A stretch of DNA of 64,000 nt from Bilabrum cf. latius (GCA_965178125.1 OZ237750.1:930001-994000); one strand, 5' to 3'; shown: positions 1 to 64,000, counted from the stretch's first letter. The notes: generated by a model from the sequence alone, not told the origin. Made by a program: numbers and translations.

Positions 1-3000
1 CACCATGGCAACCTGCTCGGCCTTGCCACGGACCACCTGCTCCTCGCGTGACACGATGGCGCGCTTCTCGGCAACGGACTCACTCTACTTTGCAAGTTGA
101 GCTAGAAGCTCCTGCGTAGACCGCGCATTCTCCGCTAAAATGGGCTGTGTCTCGGTCATCTGGTCGCGCAGACGTACCACGGTCTCCTCCACGTTCTCCA
201 GGCGGTGAATACCAAGAGTCAGGCGGTAGATAGCCGCGCGCTGCTCGCTACAGCGGTGGCTCAGCCTCGCAGCAAACATCTGCACCAGGTCAAGGAAGGC
301 ACGCGGCGTCACGTACACACGCCGCTGCCGCCCGCCTTTCGCGGCGTCCCCACCGCCGGCGGTCTCACCGCGCAGACTCGCAGCCAGGTCAGCCGCTCGC
401 GTGTGAATAGCCACGCAGGCGTCCACGAGCACGTGCCGCAGCCTCTCGTTGATTTCACTGCTAGATCGGAGGCCCTGTGCGAAGGGGGGCAGCAGCTCGG
501 GTCGCTACAGCGTGTACTCGTCGTCCTCGAGCATCTCGCTGCTACCCATGTCCAGGCCCGTGGCGGCCGCGCTGCCAGCACCGAGCCCGGCAGCGAGCTC
601 GCCCTTGCCCGCGTCTCGACTTTGGGCCTCTGGCTGCGCCCCGGGAATGTGAGGAGCAGGAATCGTAGAAGGGAGGCACACGAGGCGCAGCAGCCTCGTC
701 CCGACCGACGACAGGGCTGCGCGCGGCCATTGCTCGAACCAGTCGATGCTGCAGCAGCTGAGCAGCGACGGGAAGGTCCTCAGTCGCCTCCTGAGCGTGG
801 CGCCCACGGGAGAGGTGGCCAACAATATGTGAAGGTTGGCCCGCAGCCTCTCCACAAACGTAGCGTAGAGGTCGTTCTTCGCCGCTGCTTTGGCAAAGGC
901 ATCCTCCTCGTCCTCATCGTCGTCGTCATCACCAATGTCATCGACCTTGCCTGCTGCGGCAGCCGCCTCCTCCTCAGCCTGCACCTTTTCCTCCAGCAGC
1001 TGCTACTCGTCCGCCAGCACCTGCCCCATGCGGCCGTAGATCATCTCCAGCTCATCCTGCTCCCACAGCCCGGGCACCTCGCCCTGATTCAGCACGCAGT
1101 TCACATCCTCAAAGAGCGCCTCCTCGCCCACCATGGCGTCAGGCAGCAGCATAACCGTCTTCTGCTTCTCCACCCCGGCCTTGAGCATCGCTGTCTTGAG
1201 CGACTCGCGGAAGGTTTCCACCGTGTACGGCACGCCACCTTCTCCTTGCACCACATCGCAACGAGCAATGTATGCGGCGAGGCGAGCCAGCGACTGCTTC
1301 CCGCTGCCTGCCACGCCCACGAGCATGGCATGCCCGCGCGGCTGCGACAGCACGCGGCACAGCCGCACCACGTGCTCGATGGCCCCCCGGAAAAACACCA
1401 ACTGCATGGGACTGCGCGGGTAGTCCAGGTTGTGATCCTGCAGGTAGGCATCCAGCAGTCGACCGAGCCGGCTGGGGTCCGGACACTCCTCGTACCTCAT
1501 CTGTGACTCGTCTTCACCCGGAGTGAAGAAAGACCCGAACACGAGAGGACCGATGGTCGCGCGCTGCGTCTCACCGGGCCTTCCCTTCCCGTGCGGTAGC
1601 TGCACGGAGCTCATCCCCGACACGGACGTGGCGGCGATGGATGCGCCATCTCCCATCGACCTCGGCTCAGCCTCCGAGCCTCCGTCGCCGGCACCCGGCT
1701 GGTCTCCAAGTACACCGAGTGCCTCGGGGCCGAAGAGATCCTCCCAAGTCCACGGGAGTCGGAAATACCGATGTAGCGTCTGGACGAGGGTCGTGGTGAA
1801 CCACGTACGGTCTTTCTCGCTGGCGAGCCTGTCGTGGAACAGCCTCATGCACTCGTGCATCCACAGTCGGGCCTGCACGGGGCCAGTCCCGCACTTTTCC
1901 GGCTGCCCCATCAAGATGCCCTTGAACACACCAGCCACGTCACGCAGGTTGAACATATAGTGTGCCTTGCTGGGCGTAGGCTTCATCTCTGCCGTTACCC
2001 TGCGGTACACAGCGATGGTTGACGACACGATCGTGCTTCCCAAAGCACGCACCTCTGTTGGAAATCCTGTAAAGAATGACGTGAGGATCGTACCGAAGAT
2101 CAGGCGCATGGCCTCGTCGGACGGAGCCGGCATATTGAGCACGGTCATGTGGCGTGAGAAGCGCTCGTCCAGCGTCTGACGGCCACCACTCGGCGGCGCT
2201 CCCGCAGCAAGCATTCCGAAATCTGACACCTTGGACCAGTGCAGCTTGCTGCGGTCGTACCACCCGCCGCTGTCAAGCAGCTGCCGCAGCAGCTCGATGG
2301 GTGGCTGAGCGCCGTACTCCTCCTTGGCCGGCATGTTCACGTCGTCTACGAAGATGACCGCGCGCGTCCCCGACGGAGGTGTCAGCGAGCCCTGGCCCCT
2401 GCGCACGAGCCTCATCTCGATGGACTCCTGCACGATCGTGCTCGAGGTGCGGGCCGACATGACCAGAGACACTGGGTGCGTCCGCTAGGCCGAGACGTAC
2501 TCTGCGCCCACCCCGGCAAGAAGGGCCTGCCTATGAGCGTCTTTCCCATCGCCGTCCTCCTTGCCCTCCCGCCCGCTGGCTCTTGGCGTTCCAGCCCCCG
2601 ACTCGGCATGGCTGCTACCATCCTCGTCCTCCAACTGCTGGGCGGTCAGCTCGACGATCTTCGACAGGAGGACGCTCTTGCCCGTGCCCGTGGTGCCGGT
2701 CATGAACACGGGCCGAGAGGCAAGGAACACCGCCCCGTCCTCGGGGAACTTGTAGTCCCAGCCGTCCTCCACCGTCGCGGCTGCCGCTCGCTCGAGCGCC
2801 GTCCCCCGCCCCCCTGCTCCGAAAGCAGATGAGCTGGGCGTCTTGGGAGTTGTCGGCTTCTTCTTCGGACTGCCGCTTCCACCAGAGCCGCTCGCACCGG
2901 CACCGGCACCTGCAGCTCCACCAGCGACCCATCCGACGGGCAGCCCAACTCGGTCGTGGATCGGGGCCATACCCTTGGTATGGGTCTCGAGGAACGCCGG

Positions 3001-6000
3001 GCCAAACGAAAGCAGCTGTGTGAGTCGGCCGAAACGGACCGTATCAGAAGTTGGCACGATCAGCGATGAGAGGACTGCAGGGTCGTTCGAAGGGTTCACC
3101 TGCGGGACAACATCGCGCCAGGGCCGAAACAAACCAGCCTCAAGCCCCTCTTCGACTCGTACGAAAAAGTCGAAGCACATGCCGGCTGACGGCAAGCCTG
3201 CCTCGATGCCAGCCCGTCGCAGTCCGTCCCGCATGGCTTTGTCAAACCCTCGCCAGTGATCTTCGGCCAGCTGACCGCCCACTGCCCACGTGGCGGCAAA
3301 GGTGGCCAATCTGTCCATGAGGCGCACGGCCTGTGTCAGGTCCTTGTCCCAGCGGACCCCATCCTTTTCGATGTCCGCGATGCAGGACTGCAGCAGCGCC
3401 AGACATGAGACGACGGCAGCCGTGCGCCCGCTCTTGATCGGCACCTCGGCCTCACTCTCTACAAACTTGAAAAGAGCGGGGAGGGTGCCCAGCAGCACGT
3501 ACTGCAGCCGGACTCTGCAGGCCTTTGGCAGGAATGCGCGCGCAAAGTCACCACCAAGCCACGATCCCACGAGAGGCTCCCAGCCGAGGTCAGTCTCGGC
3601 CACAAACACGACTCCCAGCCGGCTCACTGTCGCCGGAGAGGCATGCTGCAAGTCGCCCACCTCGAACAGCACGCGCATATGTGGCTTGAGCCTGACGCGC
3701 TCACCGTTGGCCAGGCAAAGCATCTGGTTGTCATCCAGCACAGTGTTGAGACTCTCAATCCACACAGCGTCCACTGGCCCGTCGAACACGATCCAGTGGC
3801 GATCCGGACCCGGGTCCTTGGCCGCTCCTCGCAGCAGAGCAGACGCAACGCCGTCGCTCCACTCCTGTGACACGTCGTTGAACGTGCCGTACAGCTCCTG
3901 CAGAGTCACGCTCTTAGGGTTAAGCTCATGCAGCACAATCCTCGAGGGGTACTCCTCCCTCTCCTTTTTCGCGTCCAGGATGATGCGCCTGCTTGAGGCA
4001 CCGTGCGACAGGCCGTGTGAGCTGCGGCCAGCAGAGTGCAGGGAGCCCTTGCTCGAACTGGCACCGAGGCCGCCCTCTGCTCCAGCGTTGCTGCTCGCCG
4101 CGCGGTATGCCCCGCCGAACATGGGCGATGTGGACACCTGGATGCGGTTTGGCTGCTCACCGCCTGCCCCGCCGCCGGCCTGCTGTGCCACACCGTACGG
4201 GACGATGGAGGAGCTGGATCGGGCGTGGCTGCCCATCCCGGACCTGCCCCCACTCGCGACCGATCCGCCCGCGCCCAGGCCTGAGATCCTGTACCCGAAG
4301 TCCAGCTGCCTGACCTTGTGCAGCGGCAAGCCCTTCTTTCTGGCAAAGTCGCGCTCCGACAGGTCGGTCATCGCAGCGGCCAGCACACGCCGAATCGTTG
4401 ACTTGCCCATGCCGGCTGGGCCCACGATCGCCGCACCGAATCGCACGTCCAGAGTGTCCCTCAGCTGCTGCGTCTTAGTGATCTGCCTCTCGACCACCTG
4501 CAGCCCATTACGCTTCACCTCGTCCAGCACAGATTTGCGGAGCTTCTCATCCGCCCTGTACGGCAACACGATGCCAGGGAACAAATCGCCCACGATGGCA
4601 TGGAAGAGCGGCAGGTCCTCGGCAAGAAACTTGGGCACGTTCGCATCCCGCATTGCCTTGATCAAAATCGCGTCTTCCGCAGACGAGACGGCTGGGCTCA
4701 CGTCGCCGCTGCCACCGGACCCAGCACCACCCGAGGGCGTAGGGGAGAAGCCTTCTCCATCCATGCCCGCACCAGCCCCACCGCCTGCAGTTGGGCTGAA
4801 TGGCGAGAAAGGGATACCTCCTCGGCCTCGTCTAGGCTTCTGGTCCTCCAACAGCTGGCCACCCTGCTTCCGCCTCAGGTTGCCAGCCATCACCAGCACG
4901 CTCTTCACCGCGCGCAGGCCGAAATCGTAATGCTTCTGCTGGCTGAGCTGCTCTGATGACAGCTTATAGAGCTTGGTCATCTTGCGACTCAGCGACCGGG
5001 CCGTGCGGAATCCCTACGCAAACAAGAGCACCTCCGCGATGAGGCTGTAGTCGGGGACCATCATGGCAACCGGTCGGAACAGAGTCTTGAGGTTGTCGGG
5101 CAGCTCGGTTCGGCCTGCGTACCCGGGATTCATGGTGACTATGACGTGGTACTCACGCAGCGAGATACTGCGGCCTTGGAACTGCACCGTATCATCACCT
5201 CTCATGCGGCCCTCCCGCAGCTCCATCATCTGCTGGGCAATCACGGACAGCACCTCGATGTCGATCCTGTTGAACTCGTCAAGACAGCTCCAGGCCCCCG
5301 CCTCGGCAAGCCCCGCAAAGAGCTGCCCGATCATTGTGTGCGTGATCTGCTCCGAGCAGTTAAACACGATGCACTGGATCGCCAGCCCCTTGGCCAGGTC
5401 TTTACTGCTCTCCGTCTTGCCAGTGCCGGCGGGCCCAGCAGGGTTGGCGCCCAGCCGCATGCGCAACGCCCCAGTGATCGTCATCCAGCAGCGGTCCGTC
5501 AGTGGGGTGATCACAAGACGTGTGGTCCTGCCCTCGTACTCGAGGCCATACTTGACTGTTGAGTCTGCCTGCCTTGCTACGCAGTCATCCCCCTCAGACG
5601 CATCGGCGCCCCGTCGCCAGTACATGCGCAGCTGCTGCTGCCACGCGAAGTCGCTTGTCTTCGATACCTCTTCCTGCACCAGCCTCTCAATCACCGACCG
5701 ATTGTGCACGTCGGCCGTGACAAGCGCGGTAGCGGTCGCCCTCTGCAGATTGCTTAGTCTGCCGCGAACCTTCTTTACCAGCATGTCCAGCGCTCGAATC
5801 TGCACCTGCAGCCATGTTGCGAGCGACTAGGCAGAGTCGTGCTATCCGGGAGGACCCAGCACGCTTCCAGACCCCGCCACGCTGCGCTGGGCCGCCCCTG
5901 TCGCGGCGATACTGGCGGCAACGGAGCCGCGGTGCGCCCCCGCCACGGAGGCGGCACCAGTCACGCCAGAGTGCAAACTGAGCCGGCTGCTTGCTCCGGG

Positions 6001-9000
6001 CAAGACCCTCCCCAGAGATGAAGAGTCCCCGGGCTTCAGACCAGGTACCGTGCGCCCCGCGCCTCCGCCACTGCCCAGCAAGGCCAGGATCTGGTGCCCG
6101 CCCCGGCCAGTGATGGCGGCCTCGGTGCCTCTGGCCCACATGATCTGCGACACCGCTGTGATCACCTGCCCAGGCGTGTCAGAGAGCGCAAACTCCTCCC
6201 TGGGAATCTTGAGGAAATCATTAATCCCTTTCTTGAGAGCGCGCTGCAGCTGTGCCTTCATGTTGAGCTCCACATTCCCCAGCCATTCATCCACCTCGCC
6301 GTGCACCTTTAGGTTGCGGCCCAGCTTGAAAGCCTCCCCTTCCGCGCTCACCAGGTGGGTGACGTCCACTGTTCCGCCAGTCACCTCCTCAAGCCGCAGG
6401 CTTGCCACGTTGTCGAACATTTTTTGCACGTGCTGCTGCACTGCTCGAGCGTCCTGCGCATTGCTGAGGATGTTCAGGAGGTCGTCGTTCGACAAGAAGT
6501 AGAATCGCGCGAATGCCCTCCGCTTGCGGTCCAAGAATCTCTCCAGTCCTTTTTGCACGTAGTCCAGCGTGAGGTTGTGCTTCATCAGCTGCTCCCGGAG
6601 CTGGGACCGCGTCACGGTCCGCAGCGCGTTGGGATCCTCCCTGGTCTTCTTCATGATCTCGCGGTATGCCTGGTCCACACCTTGGAAAGCCCGGGCCTCG
6701 CTGGCCAGCTCCTCCTGGATCTTGCTGCGGCCACGCCCGCCAGACATGGAGCCGCCCGAAAACACGGGTTGCAGGTACATCCACTGCCGCTAGACAGACA
6801 CCCACTCGCCCAGCGTCTCCTGCAGCTGGTGCAGCCTAGTCGCCAGCTCGTCCACCTTTGGTCGAATTCTGCCCACGAACCGGGAACCCAGCACCGAGTT
6901 GAGAGAGACGAAGCTCTCATCCAGGGCATCGAAGATATCATCCACTCCGGTCAGGATCTCCACGTCCCGCAGGTCCTTGTAAGGGATCGTGTCCAGCTCT
7001 TTGGTCTCCCATACGCCGCGGATGCGATCCAGCACGGTCTCCAGCTGCGCTTCCTGGGTGGCCTCCAGCGCGACCTGGGATATCTCGGCAGATTTGTGCG
7101 TCACGCCCTTCTCCACCAGCGTGCCGACGAGCACGATGGGCTCGTCGAACAGCCGAAAGCCGCCCAGCAAGCCGTGGATTCTCTCCTTGTGAGACTGCTG
7201 CAAGGACGTGTTCTTGAGGTCGCCCAGCACGGGAGCGAGTTGCTTTACCTCGGACAGCAGCGCCCGCAGCATCGTCAAGACAGGGCTCGACCTCAGCACG
7301 GTGCTACGTCCTGCCACGGCCGCAAATTTAGAGAAGGCCCTCATTTGTGCGCGCATGTCGGCCGGGTCGATTGCCTTGTGGAAATCGCTGTCTAGCCACT
7401 GCTCCATCTTCTCCCTCCAATCGCGGACGGACTGCCAGAGCCGCAATTTCAGGCTCACGTCCTCCTTGAGCTCGTGCAGCTGCGAAAAGTCCGTACGCGT
7501 GAGTCTGAGGATCGTCTGATACCGCGCGTACGTGTCTGCTTCTCGAGAAAGCCGCTGCACGGCATCGTCGACAGACCGCAGGTGCCCGATCGCGTCTTCT
7601 GGCTCCGCCCGCGCATTGTGCACGATCATTTCATCGGCGCGGCGCTTCGTGTCAAGGATGGCGGCGCGCAGCCGCGGCATGGTAGTCTCGAGTTCTCTGC
7701 CGAATCGCGTCTTGTTTGCCTCTACCACGCTCTGCACCTGCTGCACTAGCTGGCCTACCTTTACGTACAGCAGACTCGTCATCTGGTGGGCAGTCCTGAG
7801 CTGCTCCGGGGCGGGGAACTCCTCCTCTTCGATGATCGTGAACAGGTCGTTCACCCTCTCCATGGCCTCTCTCCACTCTTCCTGCTTCTGGGTGGCCTCC
7901 TTTAGCGCGTCGAGCAGGCGGATGAACTCGTGCACGTCTGCGGGCGCCACTTCGAGCTTCTCCTCCGAAGCGCGGAGGTCTTCGTATAGGCTGTCGTTGC
8001 GGGACTTGGCTACAACTGGAAGCACCCGGCTGAGCACACGGAGGAAGCGAGACGGGTGAGGCGCCAGATCGCGCTGCAGCTGAGTGGTCTGGATGTCGAT
8101 CTGTCCGATGGCTCGCAGGGGGCGGATGGCACGGAACCAGGCGTGGTGCACGTGCCTAGACTTGATGAGCTGCCGCAGAACGTGCGTGCTGGTGGCGTCC
8201 ACCCGGTCGTAGCTCAGCCGGCTCGTGTCCGCTGCATCGCGCAGAGCCAGCTGCCGCAACCACTGGAACGCCGCCGCGTACTGACTGGCCGCATCGTACG
8301 ACTCCCTGACGTGGGATACGACCTTGTCCGCCAGGCTGGTGAACAGGTCAGTAGACAAAAGCATCGACTCGACCTGGGAGGCGGGGTCTGAGCCGGACCC
8401 GCCGGCGCCGCCATCGTCCAATGCGGCGCCAGAGGCAGGGACGTCCGAGACGCCCAGGCTGGGGGTCGCGCCGTCCTCAACAATGAAGGCAAGCACGTCT
8501 TGAAAGTCTGCGTGCGCCAGCAGTGACGGCACAGAGGACACCACGCGCACGCCCTGGAAGAGCACGTGCTCGAGTCGGTGCGTCACGAGGTCGCTGGCCG
8601 GCGACAGCCCCAGGCCGAGCCGGTTGCCGTTGTGCCTAACCGTGTCCTCGTACTCATCATCGGCGGCAAGAGGGGGCTCCAGGGCGGGCGCATCGGTGCC
8701 CAGCGGAGGCTTGCGCACGTACGAATCCTGTTCCTCCTCCTCACTTTCCTGCTCCTTCGAATCACCGCCAGTGGCGCCTTTCTTGGCTGCTTTGGGAGAG
8801 CCCGAGCCAGGCTGCTGGTGCGGCTCGGCGGGCTGCAGACTGGCCATGCTGCCCGACTCGGCGATGGCCCGCCGCGCAGCTTCGTTTTCGTCTGCCATGG
8901 CCCGCGCGGCGATTGCATCCTCGGATATCTCGGCCTGCAGCTGCACAGCGAAGAGCGGCGGGGCGGGCCGCAGCCCCTCAAGGCTTAGACTGCGGAGGGC

Positions 9001-11908
9001 CTGCGTAGCCGCCATGGCCGGTTCCTGCGCTACGGTACCAGCCGCGTGCTCGATCGCCTTGGTAGCCTCGTCCTGCGGCATAAAGTGCGCTGGGTCACCG
9101 AGGCTGCCCTCGGGACCCACTGCCCCTCCCAAGGCGGCGTGGCCCTCGGAGTCTCCCGCTGCAGAACTGCCGCCCGCGAGGTTCTCTTCCTCGGTGGCGG
9201 CAGCCGCGCCCTCCGGCTGCTCCTCCTCGATGCCGTCGGAGAAGCGTCCCTCCGAGGCCCCGGGCAGCGCGAGGCCGCCCCCCTTCTGCCGCATCTCGGC
9301 CCAGTACATGCGCTGGTACACCCGCGGGTCGAGGTGTTCCGCCAGCCAGCTGGTGCTGGCGATCGCTACGCTGTACAGCGAGTGCTGCACCATCACGTCC
9401 ACCATGCGAACGAAGCGCGCGAGCCTCCGCCCATGCCTGCGGGTGGCTGCACGCCTGGTGAAGCCGAACGACAGCACTTCACCGGTAGTAGAGGGATCCG
9501 CCAGCATCGCTGCCCTGGTCTCTGTCTCCACATCGACCAGCGAGGAGCCCCCGCCGTACAGACTGGAACCCTGGTCCAGGCCCTGCGGCATGGACCCCGA
9601 GCCTGGTGCGAACCCGCCGGCGCCCCTTGCTGCACTTGAGAGCGAGCCCGAGCCTAGAGATGCCAGGCTACCGTGCTCCGCTGGTCCCATCCCCGGGTGC
9701 GATGCCTGCTGCCGCCCGATCGCCAGCCCAATCGAGGCAGGCGAGGCCGTCAGACCAGCAGCAGCCCCTACCCCGGCCACCCCGCTTCGGGTGGACGGCA
9801 GCCTGGCCAGGATCACGCGAGCCTCCCTGTTCGCGTGCCTCCTCTCCCGGCGGGCCTCCCTTGCCCTGGCTGCCACCCAAGCCGTAGACCCCACCCCTCG
9901 CCCAGAAGCACCCGCACTGGTGTCCAGCTGCTCGGATCCTTGCGCACCGAGTCCACCCCCGAGCTGGTTCCCGTTGTTCCCCGAATCGGGACCCTCTTCC
10001 TGCGCGCCGCCCGCAGCCAGCATCACAGATCCCTGCATGAGGCTGGAGCCGCCCCCGTCCAGCAACGAGCTCTGCTCCCCGTCCACCAACATGCGCTCCT
10101 CGTGCCTCTGGCGGAGCTCCGCAACGGCTTCGTCCACCACGTCAGCGAGGCTGGTGACCCTCCACTCCACGTCATCGTGGTCCAGCTGCCCCATAGTTCC
10201 GAAGCCAGACACGGCCAGCGCGGCGCGCATGGACCGCTCGCACGCAAGCCTCACGCGCTTCCTCAGCGCGTCCACAAATCCGTGAAGTACCACAGCCACG
10301 TCGGACCGCCTCTGCTCCTGCGCCGCCACGAACTGCGCAAGGGTGTAGGTGCGGCCGTACTCTAGGTCGAAGAGGCCGCACTACTCCTGCAGCCTGAGGC
10401 AGCCTGCCCGCACGGCCCTTAGGCATCGCTGCAGCAGCGGGTCCAGGAGCGGCAGCCGGGCGTGCAGCTTGCGCACGGCCCCGTTTCTCTTGTTCCGCTT
10501 GGCCAGGAGAGCCCATGCCTTGAATGCGCGCTGGGAGTGGTACTGCCGGAAGAAGGGCCTCTGCCGCATGAGGTAGTAGAGAAAGTACTCGCGCTCGAAC
10601 TCAGCCAAGGGCACGAACTCGGGTGTCTCGCCGTCCCGGGACCACGTCAGACCCTCACTGGACAGCGTGACGATGCTGCCGCGGGGTGCACGCGCCGCCT
10701 CGTCCGGAGAACAGAGCTCCAACTCGTATTTGAGTCCTCGCGGCGACTTGAGGTACACAAATGACTGCCCCTGGATGTGGGAGGGGTGGAACCTCGGGTC
10801 CCTGCACAGCTTCTGCGAGTAACGAGTGACCAAGGGGAGTAGGGGGGCGATGGAGGGGGGCGATGGGCAGGGATGAAAAAATGGTGCGCGCAAGTGATGA
10901 GCAATGGTAGCGATAGGCAAGGCAGCAATCGGCCAAGCACGCCCAACCCAACCCAATCCAGCCCAACTTCAACCTCAACCAAATACTCACGTCTATGAAC
11001 GACCTGAACTCCCCGATATCGCCCTCGCCCACCTTGTTGGCGGTGCCTCCCAGCCGCTGTTTCTCCGCTGCTGCCTCCGCCACGTGCTCCTCGAGGGCCT
11101 TGCGTCCGGCCAGGCCCTTGCCTTGCCCCTTGCCCCTCAGTGTGTGGTCCAGCTCCCGCTGGTGAGCCAGGAGGGCGCCCACGGCTGAGCCCTTCCCGAA
11201 CGCAGAGTGCTTCATCTGCGCGCGGGCCTTTAGGGCAGCAGTGGCCTCGTCGTCCCCGGAGGCGCCCGATGATTTGCCTTCTTGTCGGAACCGCCGGCTT
11301 AGTGTGCCCGCTGGACGCACGCTGCGCCCGCCTGCGCCCCTCCGCCGACCTCTAGACCCGAACGCGGTGCTAGCTCCGATTCGCTGCCTCGACCGAGTCG
11401 AAGATTTACTCTCGGAATCGCCAAGAGCAGCTGATTTTGAGCTAGATGAAGCTGATCCAAAACCCCTGCTTCCCTATGAGGGTTCCATGAGCGCAGTGGT
11501 GCGAGGCCCAGGAGCTTGTGGCGGTCTGGCTCCGCTAGGTGGTGCCGGGACTCTGGCAGCAGCTGCAGCTTGCTCCTCTGCCTTTCTTGCAAGATCCCTC
11601 GCGCTTTGTGATAATAGATGCTGCCGTGCCAAGTGTGCATCTGGCCTTGTCGTTTTTCCTCGCAGAGTGATCGGCACCGGTTTCCTAGGGGTGAGACCCT
11701 CAGCATCGTGTCCCTATCCGGCACTCATTGCAGGAACAAGTGGCATGTGCAGCTTATCGGATTTCTGTAGTGCTGCTCTAGTACTAGGAAGACTCGGATC
11801 TGCGACGGACAGTCTCGTTGCTAGGTCGGCCGCGAGTTTTGCATGGGCTTGCCGCTCCTCCGGGGTCCAGTCCTCCACGCGAGGGCTGCGCGGGGAACGA
11901 GCAGCCAT
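1..11908 (-). CDS. Axonemal dynein heavy chain, inner-arm DNAH6-like; runs off the window at position 1 (3' end missing)
   Basis: ATG at 11908 and one phase-0 intron at 10990-10813 (GTGAGT...CGCAG). The supplied ORFs 10381-10956, 6790-10329, 5842-6780, 5014-5805, 2485-4980, 1003-2472, 505-984 and 85-432 share one frame and each ends at TAG; 11 in-frame TAGs in total. Motifs: AAA1 GPAGTGKTE, CLDEFNRIDIEVLSVIAQQ, MNPGYAGRTELPDNLK, QKHYDFGLR; AAA2 GPAGMGKS, FDGPVDAVWIESLNTVLDDN; AAA3 GTTGTGKS, YGAQPPIELLRQ; AAA4 GVAGSGKQSL; stalk-proximal YVTPRAFL. Confidence 0.95.
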
Positions 11909-15025: not shown

Positions 15026-16136
15026 ATGCGCCTTTTTTCGTTTCTTGTGAAAGGAGATGAATCTCGCAAGATTGGTGTCGGTGGTGACGCGGAAGACACC
15101 CTGATTGTGGATGTAACGTCGAAGATCCCGACCATGCGCCGTGCCCTCGGTGCTGTCTCCGGCGACTCTGGCGCTACCAAGGAAGAGCTGGCAGCTGCCG
15201 AAGAATTTAAGGCGATTGCATCTGCACTGTCGAAGGGTGGTGCACCTGAGGGTGCTTTGAAGCAGTCGGACGTGCAGATCCTCGCTCCCGTCCAGCCGGT
15301 GAGAGGATGGGACTAGTTATTGTTCAAGGAAGCTTTCGGTCGCTTTACATATTTATCCCATTGGCGTAACTTTGTGTATTTCTTCATAATTCTCGCAGGA
15401 TGACGGCGAGAAGGTGTTTTGCGTCGGTATGAACTATAAGATGCACTGCGAGGAGCAAGGCTTCCCGATTCCCACCGAGCCAGTTATTTTCAGCAAGGTG
15501 CCATCGGCCATTTCTAACCCTGGCGATCCTATCTACAAATCCCCTGGCACGAGCGAGCTGGACTTCGAGGTGGAGCTTGCTATCGTGATCGGAGCCACGT
15601 GCAAGCACGTGCGCCGGGACGACGCGATGAAGTACGTCGCGGGGTACACGGTCGCGCACGACGTGTCGATGCGAGACTGGCAGCTAAAGAAGAACTCGGG
15701 CCAGTGGGGCATGGGCAAGGCCTTCGATCACTCTGCGCCTCTCGGGCCGTCTGTGGTGACCGTGGACACGCTCGGCGATCCGCACAAGCTGCAGCTTTCC
15801 TGCGTGCTGAACGGAGAGACGGTTCAGGACAGCAACACGAGTGATTTGATTTTTGACACGGGCTACGTGCTGGAGTGGATCACTCAGTTCATCACGCTGT
15901 CGCCGGGTGACATTATCCTCACAGGCACGCCCCAGGGGGTGGGCTGCTTCAGGAAGCCACCTCTCTGGCTCAAGGCAGGGGATGAGGTGACCTGCAAGAT
16001 CGAAAAGATCGGGTCCATCACCAACAAGGTCGAGGACGAGAAGGTGCCGGAGGGAGCCCCCGTGCTCAAGCACGCCGCCTCGGCTGCGGCGGGCGGAGCC
16101 GGCGGCGGCGCTGCTGCCGGCGGTGCAGACGACTGA
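15026..16136 (+). CDS. FAHD2: Fumarylacetoacetate hydrolase domain-containing protein (FAHD2-like)
   Basis: Exons 15026-15298 and 15399-16136 with a phase-0 GT..CAG intron. Motifs KVFCVGMNY, LDFEVELAIVIG, YTVAHDVSMRDWQ, GKAFD, ITLSPGDIILTGTPQGVG. Ends at TGA; no internal TAG. Confidence 0.9.
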
Positions 16137-16369
16137 TGCTGCCAGTGCGCTCGACGTCTACGCGGTCAATGGGCGCGCATTTCTGAGTGCATGCAATCAA
16201 GCGTGGTAAAAATATAATTACTAAACACCAGCATTGCACAAATCGATACTTTGTTCTTGTTGCGAGCACAATCCGGAATTTGAGTGCTTTCAAAGTTTTG
16301 CGACCAACTGCGCGGCGGCAGCACCAAATCGCGAAACAGCCACTTATCTTCTGGGCTCAGCAGCTTCCT

Positions 16370-22106: not shown

Positions 22107-22299
22107 GGGTCTACTTGATCGAGACTGCTTGAATTGCATGCGTGGTAAGCTGATACTCTGTCGAGCTCTTGCCTCACACCAGTGCACATTGGATCATGCA
22201 CGGCCGCCCATCCCAGGCAACCGGAATGACGCATAGTCCAGGGACAGCCCAATGCACGTCGCACGCTTTCGCATCCAACTGGCCTTCCCCTACACTGCT

Positions 22300-24462: not shown

Positions 24463-24582
24463 CGCCTTATCGGCGCGCCTTGGATCACGAATTGTGCCGC
24501 GAACGAAAATTACCACTGTCGCCGCGGCGCACACGGAAGTTCCGCATTTAAACTCAATTGGCCCGCTCCGGGCCGGCAGGCC

Positions 24583-25902: not shown

Positions 25903-26117
25903 TCCAAGAAAATACAATCCAGCAGTCTTTAATTCTGATAAATGCCTAACTGCTACCTTGCAAAAATAATTCTAAGTTGATGAATCGAATCTGCACGGCA
26001 CTTGCTCTCGTCACGCGGAGCGCACGGCAGGCATGCTACCGAATCATTCTGCCGCACGACACCCACGTTTTATTTCATTGATGTAGTAAACGCTAAGCTA
26101 CCTCGATTCAAGTACCC

Positions 26118-53100: not shown

Positions 53101-56055
53101 CCGCCTGGATGCCGTACCGAAGCATCACGCTCCTGCCGCTGCCCGAGTGCCCGGTCAGCAGGATGGTCCTGGAGGACAGCCGCCCATGCGCCATCTCCAC
53201 GGCGGCCTGCGCAAGCCGATCGTCGATTCCGCCGTCACCCACGACTCCTACCAGCCCGTCCTCCTGTCCGTTTCCGAGATGCAGCACAGGCATTGCCACC
53301 ACGTCTGCCTTCGGAGAGCACGGCTGGTACAGCTTGGCTGGCCGCTTCATACCCTTGAGCTGCACGGGCCCTACGACCTGGTACATGAGGCACCCTGCGC
53401 TCGCCTCCATGGCGTTCCGCGTGGCCTGGTCCATCAGAATGGAGCCCTGAAACGGAAGCTCGTCCACAAGCACCTCGCCCCGCTGCGAGGCCTCCCACAT
53501 TGCGCGCGAGGCGGCCTGCTCCACCGGATCCGTCGCATCGGTGATGCTGACTCGACGGGTCTTGCCACCCCCGCTCGAGACCGACTAGAAGACCGAGGAG
53601 GAGCCGCTCTCGGCACGCAGGTCACCGACGATGCTCGGCTCCTGCGGGCGACTCGCTCCCTCATGCTGCTTCTTGTCGCGCCTGCGACGCACCAGGGCTC
53701 GCAGGCGTGCCTTCGCGAGCGTGGCTGCCGCTGCTCGCGCGAACAGATTGGGCAGGTTGCGCTCGGTGGCGGTATTGTTGGCCCTGGCGATGCTCTGCAC
53801 AATGTGGCTCTGCGCGTCGTGGTGTTCGGAGTCGTGGGAACCCACGACTTTTCCGCCCTACCCAGGTGCACGCCCGGCTGCTCCCGAGCCACCCCCGAGG
53901 TCTGCTGCTGCTACGGGTTTGGAGGATGCGGCGCCCGACTCTCTGTTCGCACCACTGCCAGCGCTCGCCGTCGCAGCTGCGGCCCGTGCTTCTGCTCGTG
54001 CCACGTCACACATTGCCCTCCGTTTCACCGCGAGCTTCTTGGCAGTGGCCATGAGCCTAGCGCTCATGTTGACCATGTTGCCCAGCACAGTGTACTCCCT
54101 TCGGCTGCCTGCGTTGCCCACGGGACCGCAGAGCGCCAGCCCCGTGGTGATACCGATGTGGCACTCGAGCTTGTTGACGACCTGCAGCTGCTCGACGAGC
54201 GAGATGGAGGCCATCACGGCCCGCTCCGGGTCATCCTCGTGCGCGATGGGAGGCAGGCCCCAGGCCATGAGGATCGTGGCGCCCTTGTCGTCGATGAGGA
54301 ACTTATTCAAGCTGCCCTCGTACTTGTACGTGCTCTTCTGCACGGTGCGAATGGCCTCGTGGATGGCCATCTGGCTCTCTCGCGTGGGTTCCTTGGAGAG
54401 CACGTCTGGGGGTATCCCCAGGGAGGCGAACACGACCGTGATGGTGCGCAGCTCAGCGATCCAGTCACCCCGCAGGTACGGTAGGTCCGTCTGGGGCACC
54501 ACCGCGGCGGGGGCAAACTGCTTCAGCACATCCGACAGCGGACCCAGCGTGGTGCGCAGGAGCGCCTTCTTTCTCATGCCCAGGGAGAGCCGAGCCGCGG
54601 CGTCGTCCCCCGCAACCTCCCTCACCCGCCGGACCAGCTCGCGCATGTCAGAAGCAGTCTTGCGCCCCAACACCCTCACGAACTTGCTGCGGGTGCCGCT
54701 CGGCATGTCTCCGACCCCGGGAGGCAGGCTTTCCCCGGCACGGCCCGGTCCGCCCCCGCCCTTGGCCACCAGCTCCAGCCCATGCCTGGCACCGGCTGCC
54801 TTCGCATCGTCTCCGTCCTGCTCGTCTCCCGCCACCGCGCCCAGGTAGAATGGATGCACCAGCCGCCACACCTGCGGCGAGACCACGGTCCAGCCAGAGG
54901 AAGCCAGGCCCTCGCAGCGGAAAGCCTGTGCTAGGGCGGGGCCTGTCACCAGGTACTCTTTCCGATGGAAGATCCCCCCCACTGTGAGCAGCGACACCCG
55001 CCCCACGCCTACCCCCACCTTGACACTGAATTCGATCCCGTGCCCCATCCTAGACTGGTCCAGCACCTGCTGGATGAGCACGCCGCACTCGACCGCCCGC
55101 CTGGCCACCGACACGAGGCCTTCTTCATGCCGAGCCACGTACACAGGCTCCTGCCCCTCGGGCGCAGCGGCGAAGGCCCCCGCCGCCACGCTGTGCAGGA
55201 GCGCGTCGTCTAGAGGCGCGCCACCTGACAGCACGGCACCGTCGCCCAGACTGCCTGCTGCCGAGCTTGCTCCGGCCCCAGACCTGCGTCCACGGACAGT
55301 CCCTTTCCCTCCAGCAGCCCCCCCCAGCCCTCGCGCGGCCCGAAGTCCCACGTCTGCAGTGCCCGGGTGCATCCCTCCCGCCGGGCTTGCGGGGCCGAAG
55401 GCACGCGAACCGGCGCCTGGATTCGGTGCGAGCCCCATGCCGTGAGCCGTGCGCGCGTTGCGCTGCACGGCTGCGTATGCAGCAGCGGCGGCCTCGTCAA
55501 ACTGCCGCTGCGACGGCGGCCAGATGCACAGCAGCGCATCGCCTGCAAACTTCACGATGTCCGCTCCCGCCGCGTTAAGCTTTGCGCTCAGCAGTGAAAT
55601 GTACTTGTTCAATCCCTCGTACATGCGCTCGGCTCCCACTGTGCCTTTCTTAGAGAGCAGCTCGGTAGTTCGGGTAAATCCTGCAACAGAGAGCATGGTA
55701 GCAGGACGATAATTCACAACTTTCTCGCGCATGAGCATGATCGCGACGATACTTTGAATGGTATATACTAACCGCTGACATCTGCAAACACGCAGGCCGT
55801 CTCCATGTAAATGCAATGCGGTGGAGGCGTCAACGATCGATTCCGGCCGGCCTCGTTTGCCTGCATGCTCGCCTTGACAAATCGAACCACAGTCTCGCTC
55901 GTAAAGTCTTCTATACGAGCTGGTCGACCATCTGATAATGGCTGGGTACCAGCCCAAGACAGGCGTGCAGATGGGTTGGCACTGCCTCCAGCCGTTGTTG
56001 CGGGGGGTCGGCGAGGCCTATCCTTCTTGTTTTCGCGCGGCGTCGGAGCGGCCAT
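41141..56055 (-). CDS. Giant (~4,940 aa) soluble adenylyl cyclase (ADCY10-like) with STAND NTPase-like region and degenerate C-terminal class I phosphodiesterase domain
   Basis: Exon 1 56055-55773, intron 55772-55681, exon 2 55680-41141 in a single frame with ~31 TAGs and no TAA/TGA until TGA 41143-41141. C1 domain: FADVSGFT, GAERMYEGLNKY, DIVKFAGDAL. C2 domain: NKFLIDDKG, GLPPIAHEDD, GPVGNAGSRREYTVLGNMVNMSARLM. P-loop-like LLTGHSGSGRS; Walker-B-like LCIDDLHH; FLRDIVY...RQQLH. PDE-like: INTWQFDSW, AYHGSKKAADAI*AMHMLL, LEVLALLLSAA. Confidence 0.85.
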
Positions 56056-56357: not shown

Positions 56358-58816
56358 ATGGAAGGACCATTGCGAAGTACCCGCCCAATGGCTGCAACGA
56401 AGTAGGCGTCCGCCGGGGACTCTCTTGCCGGAATGCCACCCATGATGACGCTCGGGCTTGGACTGGAGTGAGTATATTTGCAGGTAACTTGCTAACGGAC
56501 TCGTGTAGGCTGCGCAAGTAGGATATTTTGCTCCGTATCGATTCGTTGCATGCTCCAAGCGCTCGCAGCTCCAGACGCAAAGTTCGGCAAGGTATGCGTT
56601 CAACTGGAGCCGCAGGAGGAGGCGCTTCGTACAAGATTTCATCTGAAGACACAATTCGAGAGCTTCTTGCAACCAAAGCTGCAGAACTGCACAGCGCAAC
56701 CGCCGCGATGGACGCCCACGGTCGAGGTGTGCAGCAGTGTGCCGTTGTGGTACCCGAGGACATTAAGCTAACGGGAGCAAAGCTAGTGTTTCGCGCATTC
56801 TTCAACGAGGCAGTGACAGACTCTAGAACCGAAAAGTACCGGTCGAGGGTGATCACGATCGTATACTTTCTCGAAGACGACACAACGGAGATGCACGAGC
56901 TGGCACGAATGAACGACGGACTGCCTGCGGGCAAGTTCCTGCAGCGAATGCAGCATCCTGCATTGTCATTAGATACGCTACGAGTTGGAGGCACGGTGAC
57001 GGTGTATGGCCGAACCTTGAGAATCGTGGCCTGCGATGAGCGCACCCGCAGATTCTACGACGATCGAGGGGAGCCACAGGAGCCGAACGAAGCTATCCCA
57101 GACGACGACTTCATGCAAGCGACGCGCAAAGAAGCAGAACGCGGCTCTCTCACGGCGTTATCTGCAACGAGAGCCATCGACAAGGGCTTCGCAGGGGCCG
57201 GCGGTTCGTCTCGCGGGAGCTACGGCAAGAAGCAGAACCCCATGAAAAGATACATGGAGGCCATCAAGGGCGGGCGCAGCGTGGTGCGAGACACGCTTCG
57301 CTCCTTCTTGGAGCACAGCGACACCGCCCTTGAATTTTACGTCACCTGGGACGATCGCGGGAGCGACGAGATCCTTGGCTCGAAGAAGTACCTGGTGCTG
57401 CGGTACCACGTGGCGACCGACGAGGTGGAGATCTTCTACAAGAAGGGCTGCGATGACGGGATGGGCGCCCTATTCTTCAAGAAGGACCGCCTGCCGAAGT
57501 TTGCCATGGCGCACGACGACCGCGCCCGGTCCTGCGAGGACGGCGACGGCTCGGAGGACTACTTCCACTGGACCGACCTGCGCGTGGGGGAGGAGATCCG
57601 GGTGCTGGGCCGCACGATGGTCCTCACCAAGTGCACCCCGGCGACCCAGCGGTTCTACGCGGACCACCTTGGGCTGGATCAGAACGCCCGCGAGGTGGTG
57701 GAGGTGCACACCAAGGAGCCCACGCCCCGGAGGCCCGTGCCCCCGCCCACCGGCTTCGGCGGCGAGGAGGACTCGCTGGCGTCCACCAAGAGCCTCATGC
57801 CGCGGGTGCCTGTGGATAACCGCCCGGCGGACCCGCGCCTGGAGGGGAAGGCCCTCCGGTACGACATGGTGCTGGACTCGGAGGACCCCATCGACAAGAT
57901 TCGGCGGTTCCAGCTGTCTTACTTCCTCGCGGACAAGTCCATATCTGTGTACGAACAAGGGGTGCCCAACACGGGCATCCCAGCGGGCAAGTTCGCGAGG
58001 CGCGACAAGCACAAGAACCCCGAGACGGGCAAGGTGTACGAGGCCAGCGAGCTCTTCCTCGACGCCAAGGTGACCGTGCAGGGGTTCAGATTCCGGGTCA
58101 CGCACGCGGACGACTTCTCGCTCGGGTACATGGAGTCCAACTCGGGGCTGTGGCCGCAGTCCTCGTTCGAGTTCGCCATGTCGACGCTCAAGAAGAAGAT
58201 GCACGAGAAGAGCTCCGAGATGCGCAAGATGTTCCGCAAGTTCGACGACGACAAGTCGGGGAGCATCACGTACGACGAGTTCCAGAAGATGCTCGAGTAC
58301 TATGGCATGTACATCTCGAGGGCCGAGATGGTCACCATCATGCGCAGGCTTGACGGGGACGGCTCGGGCAGCATCGGGTACGCCGAGTTCATGCAAGCGT
58401 TCGCGGATCAAGACGACGAGGTTGGTTTCAAGGGGGCCGACATGCGGGTGTCGACGCCCAAATCGGACCAACCCCCGGAGGGTCCCCTGGACGACTACGA
58501 CCGCAAGGTGGCGGCCCTCGAGCACGACGAGCACGAGGCCAGGGCCACCGAGCAGCTGCTCCAGGGCATCGCCCGCCAGATGAAGGCCAGCCGAGGGTCC
58601 AAGCTGCACGAGGTGTTCCGCCGCTTCGACGACAACAAGGACCACACGGTGGACCGCCGCGAGTTCCGGGCGGCCATGGGGGAGGAGGGGCTGGGCTTCT
58701 CGCCGGAGCAGGTGGGGCTGCTCGAGCGGCGCTTCTTCGCCGGGGGCGTGGAGGAGTGCGACTACCGAACCTTCATGAAGCTCGTGCACACGTACGCCGA
58801 CCGCCCGGCGGTGTGA
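56358..58816 (+). CDS. EFHC1/EFHC2/Rib72-like axonemal protein (three DM10 domains plus EF hands)
   Basis: DM10 motifs LVFRAFFNE..YFLEDDTTEM..GLPAGKFLQR, LEFYVTWDD..YHVATDEVEI, RRFQLSYFLADKSISVYE..NTGIPAGKF. EF hands DDDKSGSITYDEF, DGDGSGSIGYAEF, DDNKDHTVDRREF. Ends at TGA 58814. The 5' exon (ATG 56358, 41-bp intron 56468-56508, two TAGs) is tentative. Confidence 0.9.
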
Positions 58817-59758: not shown

Positions 59759-59919
59759 ATTGACAGCCCAGCTAGGGAGTAGGGCGAATATATGTCCTTG
59801 AGGTCCGACAGAGACATTAATGCGATATAATGGTTTGTAACGCGTAGTATTGCAGACGGCTGTTGGCAATCCGGTCCGGCCGTACTCTTGACTTGCTCAT
59901 AGATCCATTGCACGGCAAT
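59759..59919. promoter_or_regulatory. Putative bidirectional promoter region, NDUFB9 / FAM13-like
   Basis: 161-bp AT-richer interval between divergent ATGs, containing GATATAA. Inferred from position only. Confidence 0.35.
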
Positions 59920-61857
59920 ATGCCGGATACTGCCTCAAAGAAGCGGCGGCGATCTGGTGCCCGCTCCCGCTTATCCATCAGCGACGGGGAGCTTGGCGCG
60001 TTGCTGCAGCTGGCTACCGCAACTGTTGACGATTGGCTGTTCAGTGACATCCCGATTGGGCCGTAGCCCCCTTCCACGGAATTGCCATGGGAGAGAGATC
60101 ATTTGCGAATAAGCGATGCTTTTAATGGCGTGACGCTCACCTCTTAGAGGCGACTGCTTGTCCGACGAGGTAGCAAGCTGAATTGCCCGTCGCCTGAATC
60201 GCTGTCGAGGGGAGACTCAGAGGACGAGGAATCGTTCGGTTCTGAGTCGCCCGACAAGCAAATCCTCAGCGGGTTCAGAGCCCCCTCATCTGGACCACAA
60301 GAGGGGAACGCGACCCACGTGCCGCCAAGCCTGCCCGCTGGACCGCAAGCAGCTCGTGGCAATGGCGGCTATAGTGCCGGCCCAGGGCAGTCTCTGGGCG
60401 GCGAATGGACAGAAATAGGCAGTGGAAGCCCTCGCGCTGACGCAGGAGCAGCACCGGAAGATTTCCGTCTAGATTCGCCCAAGGGCATGCACGGCGAGGC
60501 GGCGAGCGACAGCAAGGCTGGATCCAGCAACGGCAGCGGAGGGCTCGGTGTGTAGGCCGGGGACAAGGCTGAGTCTGTAAAGGCACCGGCGAACTCGCCA
60601 GCGCGACCGGCATTAACTGCCAGCCAGCCGGGCCTGAGCATTGGTAGCAACAGCGGCCGCCCGGGCCCAGCCCTTGCTCAGTCCACTGGCAGGTCAGGCA
60701 TGGGCCCCTCCCCTTCCTCCTCCCCCGCCTCCTCCTCTCCAGAGCAAGAGCAGGCGCAGGACCAGGACTCGCCGAACTTGGGCTCGCCAGGCAAGGGCAC
60801 AGCCGCGCGGCAGCATGACCACAGCCACCTCCACCAGTAGGAGTAGGAGACATCTGCAGTCTAGGCAGGCAGCCCAGTAGATGCCGGTGCAGAGGCAAGC
60901 GCCGGGGGCAGCGGTCAGGATGCAGCGGGTCTCCCTCGGCGATCGAAACCCGGATCATCAAGCTCGCCCGGGTCTGGGTCTGGGTCTGGGTCTGGGTCTG
61001 GGTCTGGGTCTGGGTCTGGGTCCAGCTCAGTCTCGGGCTCGGGCTCGGGCTCCGGCTCCCGCCTCAAAGTCGAGTTCCGTTCCATGTCGGAGAGGGCGCT
61101 GTGGGCCTCCTCCTCGACGCAGGTGGACGAGGCCTTGGGGCTGGCGCAGGCCGTGGACAGGCACGCGCCGCACGGGAAGGTCCCCAGCTCTGTTCCCCGG
61201 GGGAGGTACCCTGCCCTGACCCGCCTGCTGTCGGACCTCAAGAGCCGCATGAAGCAGGCGCTGCGGGCTGCGGACGAGGCATTTGAGGCCAGGCACGGCC
61301 GCAAGCCGCAGAGGGAGGAAAAGGAGCCGCTGCGGCCGCTGTACTAGAGGTACAGGGACGTCAAAGTGGCCATCACTGAGCTGGAGAAGAGGCTGGCTGC
61401 GGGTGCGGGTGCTGGTACGGGTGCGGGTGCGCATGCTGGTGCGGGTGCGGGTGGGAGTGCTGGGTCGAGCGCGAGAGGGCCGGGGTCTGGGTCTGGGAGC
61501 CGGGGGTCGGGTCGAAGTGGTGGCAGGAGCGGCGGCCAGCAGCCGTCCCCCCGAGGGGCAGGTGCAGCCCAGGGCACAACAGGGGGTGCTGGCGCTGGCG
61601 GGGCCCCGCTGGTGCCTGGCTCCCCCCAGGTGGAGGCGCTGCTGCTCGAGAAGCGGGCCTTGCAGCTGCGGCTGCGTGCCTTCGAGGCCAAGTTTCGAGC
61701 CGAGCACGGTCGCGCGGTGCGGTTCCACCGAGACATAGCGCCTGTGAGCGAGCAGTACGCGAGGTATAAGCAAGTCAAGGAGTTGCTGAGGGCCGCGGGA
61801 GTGCTTCCGCCCGCCTCGGGCAGCAGCGCGAAGGATACCACAGGCGGGGGTAGTTAA
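59920..61857 (+). CDS. FAM13-like C-terminal domain protein with a long low-complexity region
   Basis: One frame from ATG 59920 through seven TAGs to TAA TAA at 61855-61860. Two FAM13-type helical repeats: KQALRAADEAFEARHGRKPQREEKEPLRPLY*RYRDVK and EKRALQLRLRAFEAKFRAEHGR...EQYARYKQVK. Confidence 0.7.
60970..61023 (+). repeat. (GGGTCT)8 GGGTCC coding microsatellite encoding (Gly-Ser)9
   Basis: Hexamer tandem read directly, in frame within the FAM13-like gene. Confidence 0.9.
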
Positions 61858-62053: not shown

Positions 62054-64000
62054 ATGGTAGAAAGTGTCAGGTATGACTCGATTTTCGACAGCGGCGTTCC
62101 GGCGGCGTTTCGAGCGACAGTCTCGCTTGAAATCATCAGCGACGTCATGCTGTTTGCTGCATACGCTGCAATTTCTGTGCAGCTCTTTCTGCATTCAAGG
62201 GCCGCCCTGAAAATGATAAAGTCGGTAGATACGAATGGACCAATTGCCCAGGGGAGCCTTCTGTTTCAACTATTCGTTGGAGCGTGCGGGATGACACACC
62301 TGGGGATGGGCCTCTCGAATGCCGTTTTGCACACGTCGGCGATCATGCAGGCCGTCAACATGGTGTTGAAGTTCATCTGCGCATGCATTAGCTGCTATAC
62401 AGCTGCTGTTCTCACCCCCACCCTGAAGCTCGCGGTAGAAGCGCTTTCCAAAGAGCACAAGAGAGTGATTCAGCTGCAAGAGCGCAGCGAGGAGGCGCAC
62501 ATTGGGGTGAGCGTGCTTTCCTTCCTCAATGCGCACAGGCGCAATACAAGATAGGTAACATGCTTGTTTCCATGTGGCTTTATTTCGTTTCCCGCAGTCA
62601 GAGCAACTTCGATACGTGTAGGACGAGATTCGGCACCAGGCCGACCAGGTTTCTACGTCAGCGGATATCGTACAGGTGCTTCACGCCGCTACTGCAAGTC
62701 TGACCAGGCTATCACCGTATGTTGAAGCAGCAGTCGTGATTCCAGCACTACCCAGGTTCAAGCAGACCCAAAGTCGCAGCGGCACCACGGACAAGCAGTC
62801 AGACACCGCTCCGCAAGACGAGATCGACCCTACCCGCAGCTCGGGGGATCCCACCACGCCAAGCAATGGGCGCGGGTCCAGTGCTGGATTAAGGTACGCG
62901 TCAATCTCACCAAGGGGGTCGGAAATGAAGAACGAAGCGAGCGCCTCCGTGTTTCTGGTGGCTGCGCATGTGCAGGCAGGGGTGTTCGAATCGATCGGAT
63001 CGCAAGAAGACGATTTCAGCGCCAGCTCGCCAAACGACTCCGCACCGAATGCTGGCGCAAGTGCACCAAGGAGTGCAGCAAGATCGACTCAGATCCTGCC
63101 CTCACCGGTCCCGTCGGGGCTTCCGGCCCGCGGTGCAGCTGTCCAACAGGGAGCCGCGGCTCCCCTAGTGCCGACCCAATCGGGCCGGAAGGGCAAGCAA
63201 ATGACCCTGACCACGGTTTCGAAGACAAACTCAAGATCAATCAGCAGAAACATGGGGCAGAAGAGCGTGATCGACAACACATCGGCCGGGCAGAGCAACG
63301 GGGCGGTCATCCAGTCGGTGTTCGGCCGCATGGACAGCCCGCTCTCGGGCCAGGCGCAGCTCGCCCTCAGCAAGCTCATCAAGAGGGACGAGCTGGTCCT
63401 CGTGCCGCCCGACCTCGAGGCACGGCTGCTGGGCCAGCTGGTCGCGGCTGGGGCGGCGGGCCCTCTCTTTGCCATGCGACTGTCGTTCCCCAAGCGGGTC
63501 ACGGCCGCTCTGGTGGGCAAGGGCCAGAAAGCCGTCAAGGATTCGGCGCTGTACGGCGGCGTCGCGAAGAGGAGCACCAGCACTACCAGCGACGACGACG
63601 GATAGAGCGTTTCAATGGAGCCCGCTGCAGGGGAGGCAGGGACTGGCGCCGAAAACACCAGCCGGATGACAATCGAGCAGCGGCTGGAGCGCCGCAGGAA
63701 GCGCCTGTTGCTGCGGCCCACATCGCTCGTGCTCGACAAGACTCTCTCCAACGCGATGCAGACGGCCCTGTCCAAAGTCAAGGGGAGAGACGTTGCCGTG
63801 CATGACGAAGGGGACGGGGAGGAAGACGACGGCAGCGTCCTGTTCGGAAAGGATGGCTCAAGCAACCTGGAGGCCCATGAACCCATGACGGGCTTGTCCA
63901 CAGAGGAGCGCAAGCCCACTGCCTCTGGCGAGCACGGGTCCAGCAGCGGCGACAGTGGGATCCGCAGGCCACGCAAATCGCAAGAGTCAGCCGTGGGCAT
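62054..64000 (+). CDS. Ethylene-receptor-like protein with N-terminal ETR1-type ethylene-binding domain; 3' end beyond the window
   Basis: Exon 1 62054-62554 ends in TAG|GTAACA; 43-bp intron 62555-62597; exon 2 is open to the window end through TAGs at 62619 and 63603. TM motifs ISDVMLFAAYAAIS, FVGACGMTHL and LKFICACISCYTA match ETR1 ISDFFIAIAYFSIP, FIVLCGATHL and AKVLTAVVSCATA. Confidence 0.8.

Follow-up and report, generated by a model that had tools for sequence, protein, structure and literature searches.

Does the triplet TAG still end translation in the nuclear genes of the organism deposited as Bilabrum cf. latius, or has it become an ordinary codon, and if so, for which amino acid? 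The question is raised by a stretch of 64,000 nucleotides (GCA_965178125.1, OZ237750.1:930001-994000; hereafter the window), which has a G+C content of 63% and densely packed eukaryotic genes with few and short introns, most of them interrupted by TAG in frame. A first-pass annotation of the window had proposed that UAG is read as glutamine (Gln) while UAA and UGA remain stops. The analysis presented here leads to the same answer, and we are highly confident that UAG is an ordinary Gln codon in this organism, that UAA and UGA are its sole terminators, and that this code is common to a sister taxon represented by a metagenome locus.

Under the standard code the two longest stop-to-stop frames of the window comprise 1196 and 842 amino acids, and they are unchanged when TAA is treated as sense. 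With TGA as sense the values are 1326 and 1196, and with TAG as sense they rise to 4977 and 3656. Stop triplets were counted in 10 gene models of the window (15,280 codons) as well as in the +1 and +2 frames of the same DNA. The reading frames hold 87 TAG, together with three TAA and six TGA that occur exclusively as nine terminal stops; no TAA or TGA is internal, as had been claimed before. The two off-frames, summed, contain 74 TAA, 487 TGA and 145 TAG, so TAG is about as common in frame as in either off-frame. This difference between in-frame and off-frame counts indicates purifying selection on TAA and TGA in the reading frame and none on TAG.

Window-wide, approximately 96 TAG codons were found, of which 93 lie in 12 open reading frame (ORF) models, two in an acyl-CoA dehydrogenase and one in an ETR1_N-like ORF. 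They affect 12 or 13 of 16 or 17 genes. The first-pass annotation, which gave about 100 codons in 14 of 17 genes, was close on the total and right that most genes carry TAG, with both figures slightly too high. Its counts for single genes were reproduced, namely 11 in the dynein heavy chain (nine in the large exon and two in exon 1), 12 in the frame of CASP, 13 in a chitin synthase when spliced according to the transcript contigs, and 31 in a cyclase ORF when counted from the first ATG. Four genes, encoding a fumarylacetoacetate-hydrolase-like (FAH-like) protein, a sulfatase, a rhamnosidase and a DM10/EF-hand protein, are free of TAG, which contrasts with the window-wide rate of about one TAG per 175 codons.

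The ends of 14 genes could be fixed, 10 of them at TGA, four at TAA and none at TAG. An earlier count of 15 ends had included 11 at TGA; its four TAA ends and the lack of TAG ends are retained, and UAA and UGA thus keep their role as stops. The dynein gene of the sister taxon ends in TGA. Homology continues through TAG in the dynein, chitin synthase 1, the DEAD helicase, the G-patch protein, the ACAD11-like acyl-CoA dehydrogenase and a phosphodiesterase (PDE) remnant within the cyclase ORF. The chitin synthases in PDB align through TAG 618, 709 and 716 of chitin synthase 1, and the PDB alignment of ACAD11 spans both of its TAGs, which lie within the homologous part. Among the Gln-family codons of the 10 gene models, CAG occurs 530 times, CAA 80 times and TAG 87 times (87 of 697, or about one in eight).

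The TAG sites were compared with public sequencing runs. Runs of two studies (X1-X4; X5) contain the whole of positions 12001-22000, and runs of two further studies (X6 and X7; X8) cover most of it. Contigs of X1, X5, X6 and X8, which represent all four studies, show no differing letters and no indels relative to 12001-32000. The X6 and X8 contigs contain 13 GT..AG or CT..AC joints, and because of these splice joints they are taken to stem from spliced RNA. Both runs show the GT..AG joints 18028-18154, 18276-18391, 18505-18596, 18645-18733 and 18863-18988 in chitin synthase 1 and 28956-29131, the intron of chitin synthase 2, while the joint 15298-15397 and four CT..AC joints of the sulfatase-like gene on the minus strand are found in X6 only. 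Spliced contigs include 11 (X6) and nine (X8) of the 13 TAGs of chitin synthase 1, and two TAGs of chitin synthase 2 lie inside spliced contigs of X6 and X8. Unspliced contigs span 10 of the 12 CASP TAGs (X6, 12278-14298, no differing letters) and all three G-patch TAGs (X8, 27236-28069). Since the four studies agree and spliced contigs retain TAG, errors of assembly, removal as introns and editing are all ruled out for the TAGs, as far as the contigs show. The first-pass annotation had suggested looking for CAG in the DNA at these sites, for transcripts that splice out or edit the TAGs, and for genes that end at TAG. The contigs of all four studies show TAG, the spliced ones keep it, and no gene end in the window is a TAG; with the homology on both sides of the triplets, the proposal that UAG is sense has held.

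Which amino acid is inserted can be approached from conserved positions. Dynein TAG 1260 is Gln in all 119 homologues, and TAG 3931 of the cyclase ORF lies opposite the Gln of the PDE4 motif AADVLQSTH in five of five alignments among those listed. G-patch TAG 60 aligns with Gln in three and with glutamate (Glu) in one of the four PDB chains aligned there, and CASP TAG 759 corresponds to Gln in a relative (P0126) with near-identical flanks. The TAGs of the helicase, ACAD11 and chitin synthase 1 are at variable positions, where the homologues show L/H, D/N/D, E/E/A, V/G, E/E/F and N/N/Y.

A second metagenome scan yielded a 16.5-kb locus with 58% G+C (L001) that carries the orthologous dynein; a first scan, with P0126 as the query, gave no locus. 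In the dynein, 2397 of 2767 aligned residues (87%) are identical between L001 and the window, at a DNA identity of 74.5%, and L001 has 19 + 16 = 35 in-frame TAGs of its own. Another locus, L002, has identical codons to L001 wherever Gln, Glu or TAG positions were compared in their overlap and was not counted separately. Eight window TAGs could be aligned and are opposite CAG (n = 7) or CGT (n = 1) in L001, and 18 aligned TAGs of L001 are opposite CAG (n = 15), CGC, GCA and ATG (n = 1 each) in the window. Over the 26 aligned sites, CAG is thus found opposite TAG in 22 and a Glu codon in none; conversely, none of 136 GAG and none of 19 GAA codons stand opposite TAG. Window CAG codons are matched in L001 by CAG (n = 68), CAA (n = 14) and TAG (n = 13). 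Judged by these alignments, TAG is a further synonymous Gln codon, exchangeable roughly like CAA. Pyrrolysine-like or selenocysteine-like insertion was also considered and is ruled out, as TAG exchanges with CAG.

When the 18 TAG columns of L001 were scored against 120 dynein homologues, Gln reached -46.8 and the next residue, Ala, -77.0, a lead of 30 log units. The same column-likelihood method, applied to L001, decoded 61 of 61 sense codons correctly, and the earlier assignment of UAG to Gln is upheld by this score as well as by the exchange with CAG. None of the 26 aligned sites (window 1-10569, minus strand, versus L001:3-8729) is TAG in both taxa, and CAA is opposite CAA in five of 10 cases. 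The TAG codons seem young or short-lived.

Several observations count against UAG being an ordinary Gln codon, and some of them would suit Glu, the meaning of UAG in peritrich ciliates and Blastocrithidia. At dynein TAG 1852, 75 of 119 homologues have Glu, among them every one of the 25 closest; dynein TAG 3495 is Asp or Glu (eight and seven homologues, respectively), chitin synthase 1 TAG 709 is Glu in two of three PDB chains, both from fungal chitin synthases, and the homologues of ACAD11 show D/N/D and E/E/A at its two TAG sites. With the window alone, Glu (-11.7) and Gln (-11.9) are tied in the column likelihoods over four usable columns. However, both dynein 1852 and dynein 3495 are CAG in L001, which indicates that this clade has Gln at the two Glu-like positions, although they are consistent with Gln solely through these codons. 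The 155 Glu codons compared between the window and L001, none of them opposite TAG, the 22 of 26 TAG sites opposite CAG and the invariant Gln at dynein 1260 all argue for Gln, and in the L001 scores Glu is outside the six best residues. Moreover, at just one of 136 Glu-codon columns do at least 90% of the homologues have Gln. A sense UAG with a meaning other than Gln, for which Glu would be the best candidate, is in our view highly improbable. A different kind of counterexample is a TAG of L001 (codon 1701 of the ORF L001:8777-15064, in the motif VFxLGALF) which corresponds to Trp in 84 of 96 homologues; either a TGG-to-TAG change in which Gln is tolerated or a misassembly of the metagenome may account for it.

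The remaining points on the debit side concern termination, decoding and the nature of the data. The sample of gene ends is 14 only, so that rare UAG termination elsewhere in the genome is possible, and a tRNA scan of the window and of L001-L005 was negative; eRF1 is encoded neither in the window nor in these loci, and a scan of the window likewise gave no Rfam match. Codes with dual meaning are known from Condylostoma, karyorelicts and Blastocrithidia, and UAG could in the same way be context-dependent, read as Gln within genes and as the terminator of some genes near their 3' ends. The sample of 64 kb and 14 gene ends leaves room for this, and an in-frame TAG comes immediately after the terminal TGA of CASP (14848-14853) and of the G-patch gene (28092-28097). 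Yet TAG is found at none of the 14 window ends, albeit a small sample, nor at the single L001 end, and the cyclase ORF has a TAG 14 codons before its TGA, so proximity to a gene end does not make TAG a stop there; we regard a dual meaning as very unlikely. It is exceedingly improbable that the TAGs escape translation in this form, whether as errors of sequencing or assembly, lesions in pseudogenes, unrecognised introns or targets of U-to-C RNA editing. C-to-T damage could in principle make TAG from CAG, for which no evidence was found; random C-to-T changes would also yield in-frame TAA and TGA, and the lack of a single internal one in 15,280 codons rules such damage out. The letter-for-letter agreement of four runs from four studies, the spliced transcript contigs that retain the TAGs without a differing letter, and a second taxon with 35 in-frame TAGs at other positions speak likewise against an artefact. 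On the other hand, the read evidence consists of assembled contigs, which drop rare variants. None of the runs is recorded as RNA, X6 being classed as "probably DNA" and the class of X8 being a guess, so that the RNA origin of both is deduced from the splice joints alone. Lastly, the placement of the organism given below comes from a single gene.

If UAG is an ordinary Gln codon, as we hold, it would by analogy with other stop-codon reassignments be read by a tRNA-Gln with anticodon CUA, for which the simplest source would be one base change in tRNA-Gln(CUG). By the same analogy, recognition of UAG by eRF1 would be lost or weakened, with UAA and UGA recognition kept, and the N-domain of eRF1 would no longer bind UAG.

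Table 1. Genes and exons of the window, with in-frame TAG codons, terminal stops and the matches or joints that support them.
Feature	Coordinates	Strand	Length (amino acids)	TAG	End	Evidence and remarks
Axonemal inner-arm dynein heavy chain (DNAH6-like)	1..11908	-		11		PDB and homologue matches, E=0; 3' end beyond window
Dynein exons	large exon 1..10569 or longer; exon 1 10990..11908	-		9; 2		GTGAGT donor closes exon 1
CASP golgin	12280..14850	+	856	12	TGA	Pfam CASP_C 1.6e-29
FAH-like	15128..16172	+	300	0	TGA	spliced X6 contig; intron 15298-15397
Chitin synthase 1	16370..22106	+	1728	13	TGA	Pfam Chitin_synth_1 4e-38
Chitin synthase 1 exons	16370-18027, 18155-18275, 18392-18504, 18597-18644, 18734-18862, 18989-22106	+				five GT..AG joints, X6 and X8
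Sulfatase-like	21403..24400	-	554	0	TGA	CT..AC joints in X6 contig
Sulfatase-like introns	22943-23111, 23451-23564, 23860-23961, 24135-24247	-				X6 contig
ACAD11-like acyl-CoA dehydrogenase	24583..26010	-		2	TAA	Pfam Acyl-CoA_dh_1 1.9e-35; PDB ACAD11 7e-123
ORF311, weak RMP1 match	26118..27053	+	311	2	TGA	Pfam
G-patch (PinX1/Pxr1-like) protein	27162..28094	+		3	TGA	Pfam G-patch 7e-15
Chitin synthase 2, divergent paralogue	28955..33453	+		4 (exon 2)	TGA	Pfam Chitin_synth_1 5.8e-22
ORF330, coiled coil	33659..34651	-	330	5	TAA	
Alpha-L-rhamnosidase with SUEL lectin domain	35407..38312	+		0 (as modelled)	TGA	Pfam; second exon 37557-38312
DEAD-box RNA helicase	38516..40933	+		2	TAA	Pfam DEAD 1.9e-43; PDB alignments span both TAGs
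Cyclase ORF, intronless	41141..55738	-	4865	31	TGA	adenylate/guanylate cyclase domain and phosphodiesterase remnant
DM10/EF-hand (EFHC1-like) ciliary protein	56594..58816	+		0	TGA	Pfam DM10 6.7e-61
ORF675	59830..61857	+	675	8	TAA	
ETR1_N-like ORF	61790-62725	+		1		Pfam
ORF extending beyond window	62559-63998	+		2		

The genes with their coordinates are listed in Table 1. Introns are canonical GT..AG, with lengths of 89-176 nt for the window and about 67 nt for L001 (L001:8731-8797). The family names of the FAH-like and sulfatase-like genes come from a reading of their translations and not from a domain scan. The rhamnosidase gene is modelled with a putative intron, in which the single TAG of its first ORF would lie. 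The ETR1_N-like ORF and the ORF that runs beyond the window may be one gene.

Chitin synthase 2 differs from chitin synthase 1 at conserved motifs. In an alignment by eye (29134-33453), EEERKK takes the place of the catalytic QRRRW, and GYDRT that of AEDRI. Homologue searches with the two chitin synthases gave two matches and one match, leaving chitin synthase 2 almost without homologues. Its sequence suggests that it is possibly an inactive paralogue. The 14.6-kb cyclase ORF is mostly of low complexity with one cyclase domain match, and in its short phosphodiesterase remnant a Lys replaces the His of the PDE4 motif HAADV.

Fragments from this organism or a close relative are already present among public proteins (P0125, P0128 and P0123). 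P0125 and P0128 are about 90% identical to CASP. P0125 starts directly after TAG 591 and stops directly before TAG 741 of the window CASP, while P0128 starts at residue 806, where the window has no TAG. From the boundaries of P0125, a still closer relative appears to have both TAG sites in common with the window, and standard-code gene calling appears to have cut its gene there. This agrees with the earlier warning that standard-code annotation would shatter such genes. The identical sequence of 12001-22000 is found in runs under four organism codes, from four studies of 2025, and the flagellate may share cultures with other organisms.

Where does the organism belong? Its dynein matches that of Cafeteria roenbergensis best (1874 bits); metagenome proteins and oomycetes come next. 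The Cafeteria orthologue, a database protein of 5581 amino acids, has the same long-insert architecture, and Cafeteria, a member of the Bicosoecida, is also a heterotrophic flagellate. In a FastTree dynein tree of 35 rows and 1650 columns, the window and L001 group together (support 100) and are sister to Cafeteria_A and P0003 (100). P0005 (100) and P0014 (99) are next out, and the fork at which the oomycetes attach is unresolved (91, drawn open). The branches between the window and Cafeteria are long, with 0.53 and 0.48 changes per column. Among PDB entries, 7wjm matches the chitin synthase best (3e-7, as compared with 5e-3 for entry 7xs6); we take it to be the enzyme of Phytophthora sojae. 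Judged by these sequences, the organism is probably a stramenopile, likely of the Bigyra near Bicosoecida.

Cafeteria probably uses the standard code genome-wide, and its genome is GC-rich and intron-poor. If its code is indeed the standard one, the code change probably has an origin of its own. Two further loci, L003 and L004, have no in-frame TAG in 3993 and 2791 codons, respectively. They were considered as distant kin with the standard code and rejected, since the tree puts L003 with green algae and L004 among other dynein paralogues; they are therefore uninformative on where the code changed.

UAG as Gln with UAA and UGA as stops is the pattern of NCBI table 15. In the codes of NCBI table 6 (UAR = Gln), used by many ciliates, hexamitid diplomonads, Dasycladales and others, a stop has been captured by Gln as well, presumably via a mutated tRNA-Gln, but there UAA is also sense, whereas in the window TAA is never internal and ends four of 14 genes. 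For Iotanema spirale (Fornicata), UAG as Gln with UAA and UGA as stops is reported, along with a T32G change in the GTS motif of eRF1 (Panek et al. 2017, PMC5304391). Iotanema has the same code table as the window organism, with UAG uncoupled from UAA, and the evidence that revealed the code was of the same two kinds in both: UAG in frame within conserved genes, and gene ends defined by homology. The organisms themselves differ, Iotanema being an anaerobic metamonad and the window organism a stramenopile-like flagellate of 63% GC that encodes an axonemal dynein, an acyl-CoA dehydrogenase and chitin synthases.

Reassignment of UAG alone to Gln is also reported for two phyllopharyngean ciliate lineages and Protocruzia tuzeti (McGowan et al. 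2024, PMC11687900). These are likewise UAG-only changes to Gln, within a phylum with many code changes, while the dynein tree places the window organism outside ciliates and alveolates. The same two papers further list the rhizarian exLh with UAG as Leu, Scotinosphaera with UAG as Ser, and the ciliate PL0344 with UAG as Glu and UAA as Lys (PMC11687900, PMC5304391). UAG is uncoupled from UAA there too, with another amino acid; across the 26 aligned TAG sites of our data, no Leu, Ser or Glu codon stands opposite TAG. Full-text literature searches, with supplements and subscription journals outside their scope, gave no stramenopile case of UAG-only reassignment. The code table is thus already known, and it is the lineage that appears to be new for it. 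The first-pass annotation had raised the possibility of an independent, undescribed reassignment, to which the position beside Cafeteria lends support, with "undescribed" following from literature searching alone. As the runs date from 2025, a description of the code may be in preparation.

Whether this is the first nuclear code change in stramenopiles, i.e. an independent UAG-only capture by Gln in a GC-rich, aerobic, free-living flagellate beside Cafeteria with the codon in rapid flux, is a proposition for which we see even chances. If true, UAG would be turning over fast, in that sister taxa with 74.5% identical DNA have none of 26 TAG positions in common. A GC-rich genome is expected to have had frequent UAG stops before the change, so the case would speak against simple capture by codon disappearance and favour the ambiguous-intermediate route. 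With spliced transcript contigs in two public runs, the lineage might allow a test of that route.

Nuclear uncoupling of UAG from UAA is known from only a handful of lineages (PMC11687900, PMC5304391). Each independent origin is a natural experiment in which eRF1 and the tRNA pool are retuned between codons that differ in the third-position purine. With a sister taxon that uses the same code and a named relative that is understood to use the standard one, the change could be placed on the tree, dated by the turnover of TAG sites, and tied to specific tRNA and eRF1 changes. Most genes of the organism would be broken by standard-code annotation, and because its sequence is filed under four organism labels, mis-translated fragments are likely to spread in databases. 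Because it lies in a GC-rich genome and probably arose independently of the groups in which such changes are usually seen, this code is of interest to research on code evolution.

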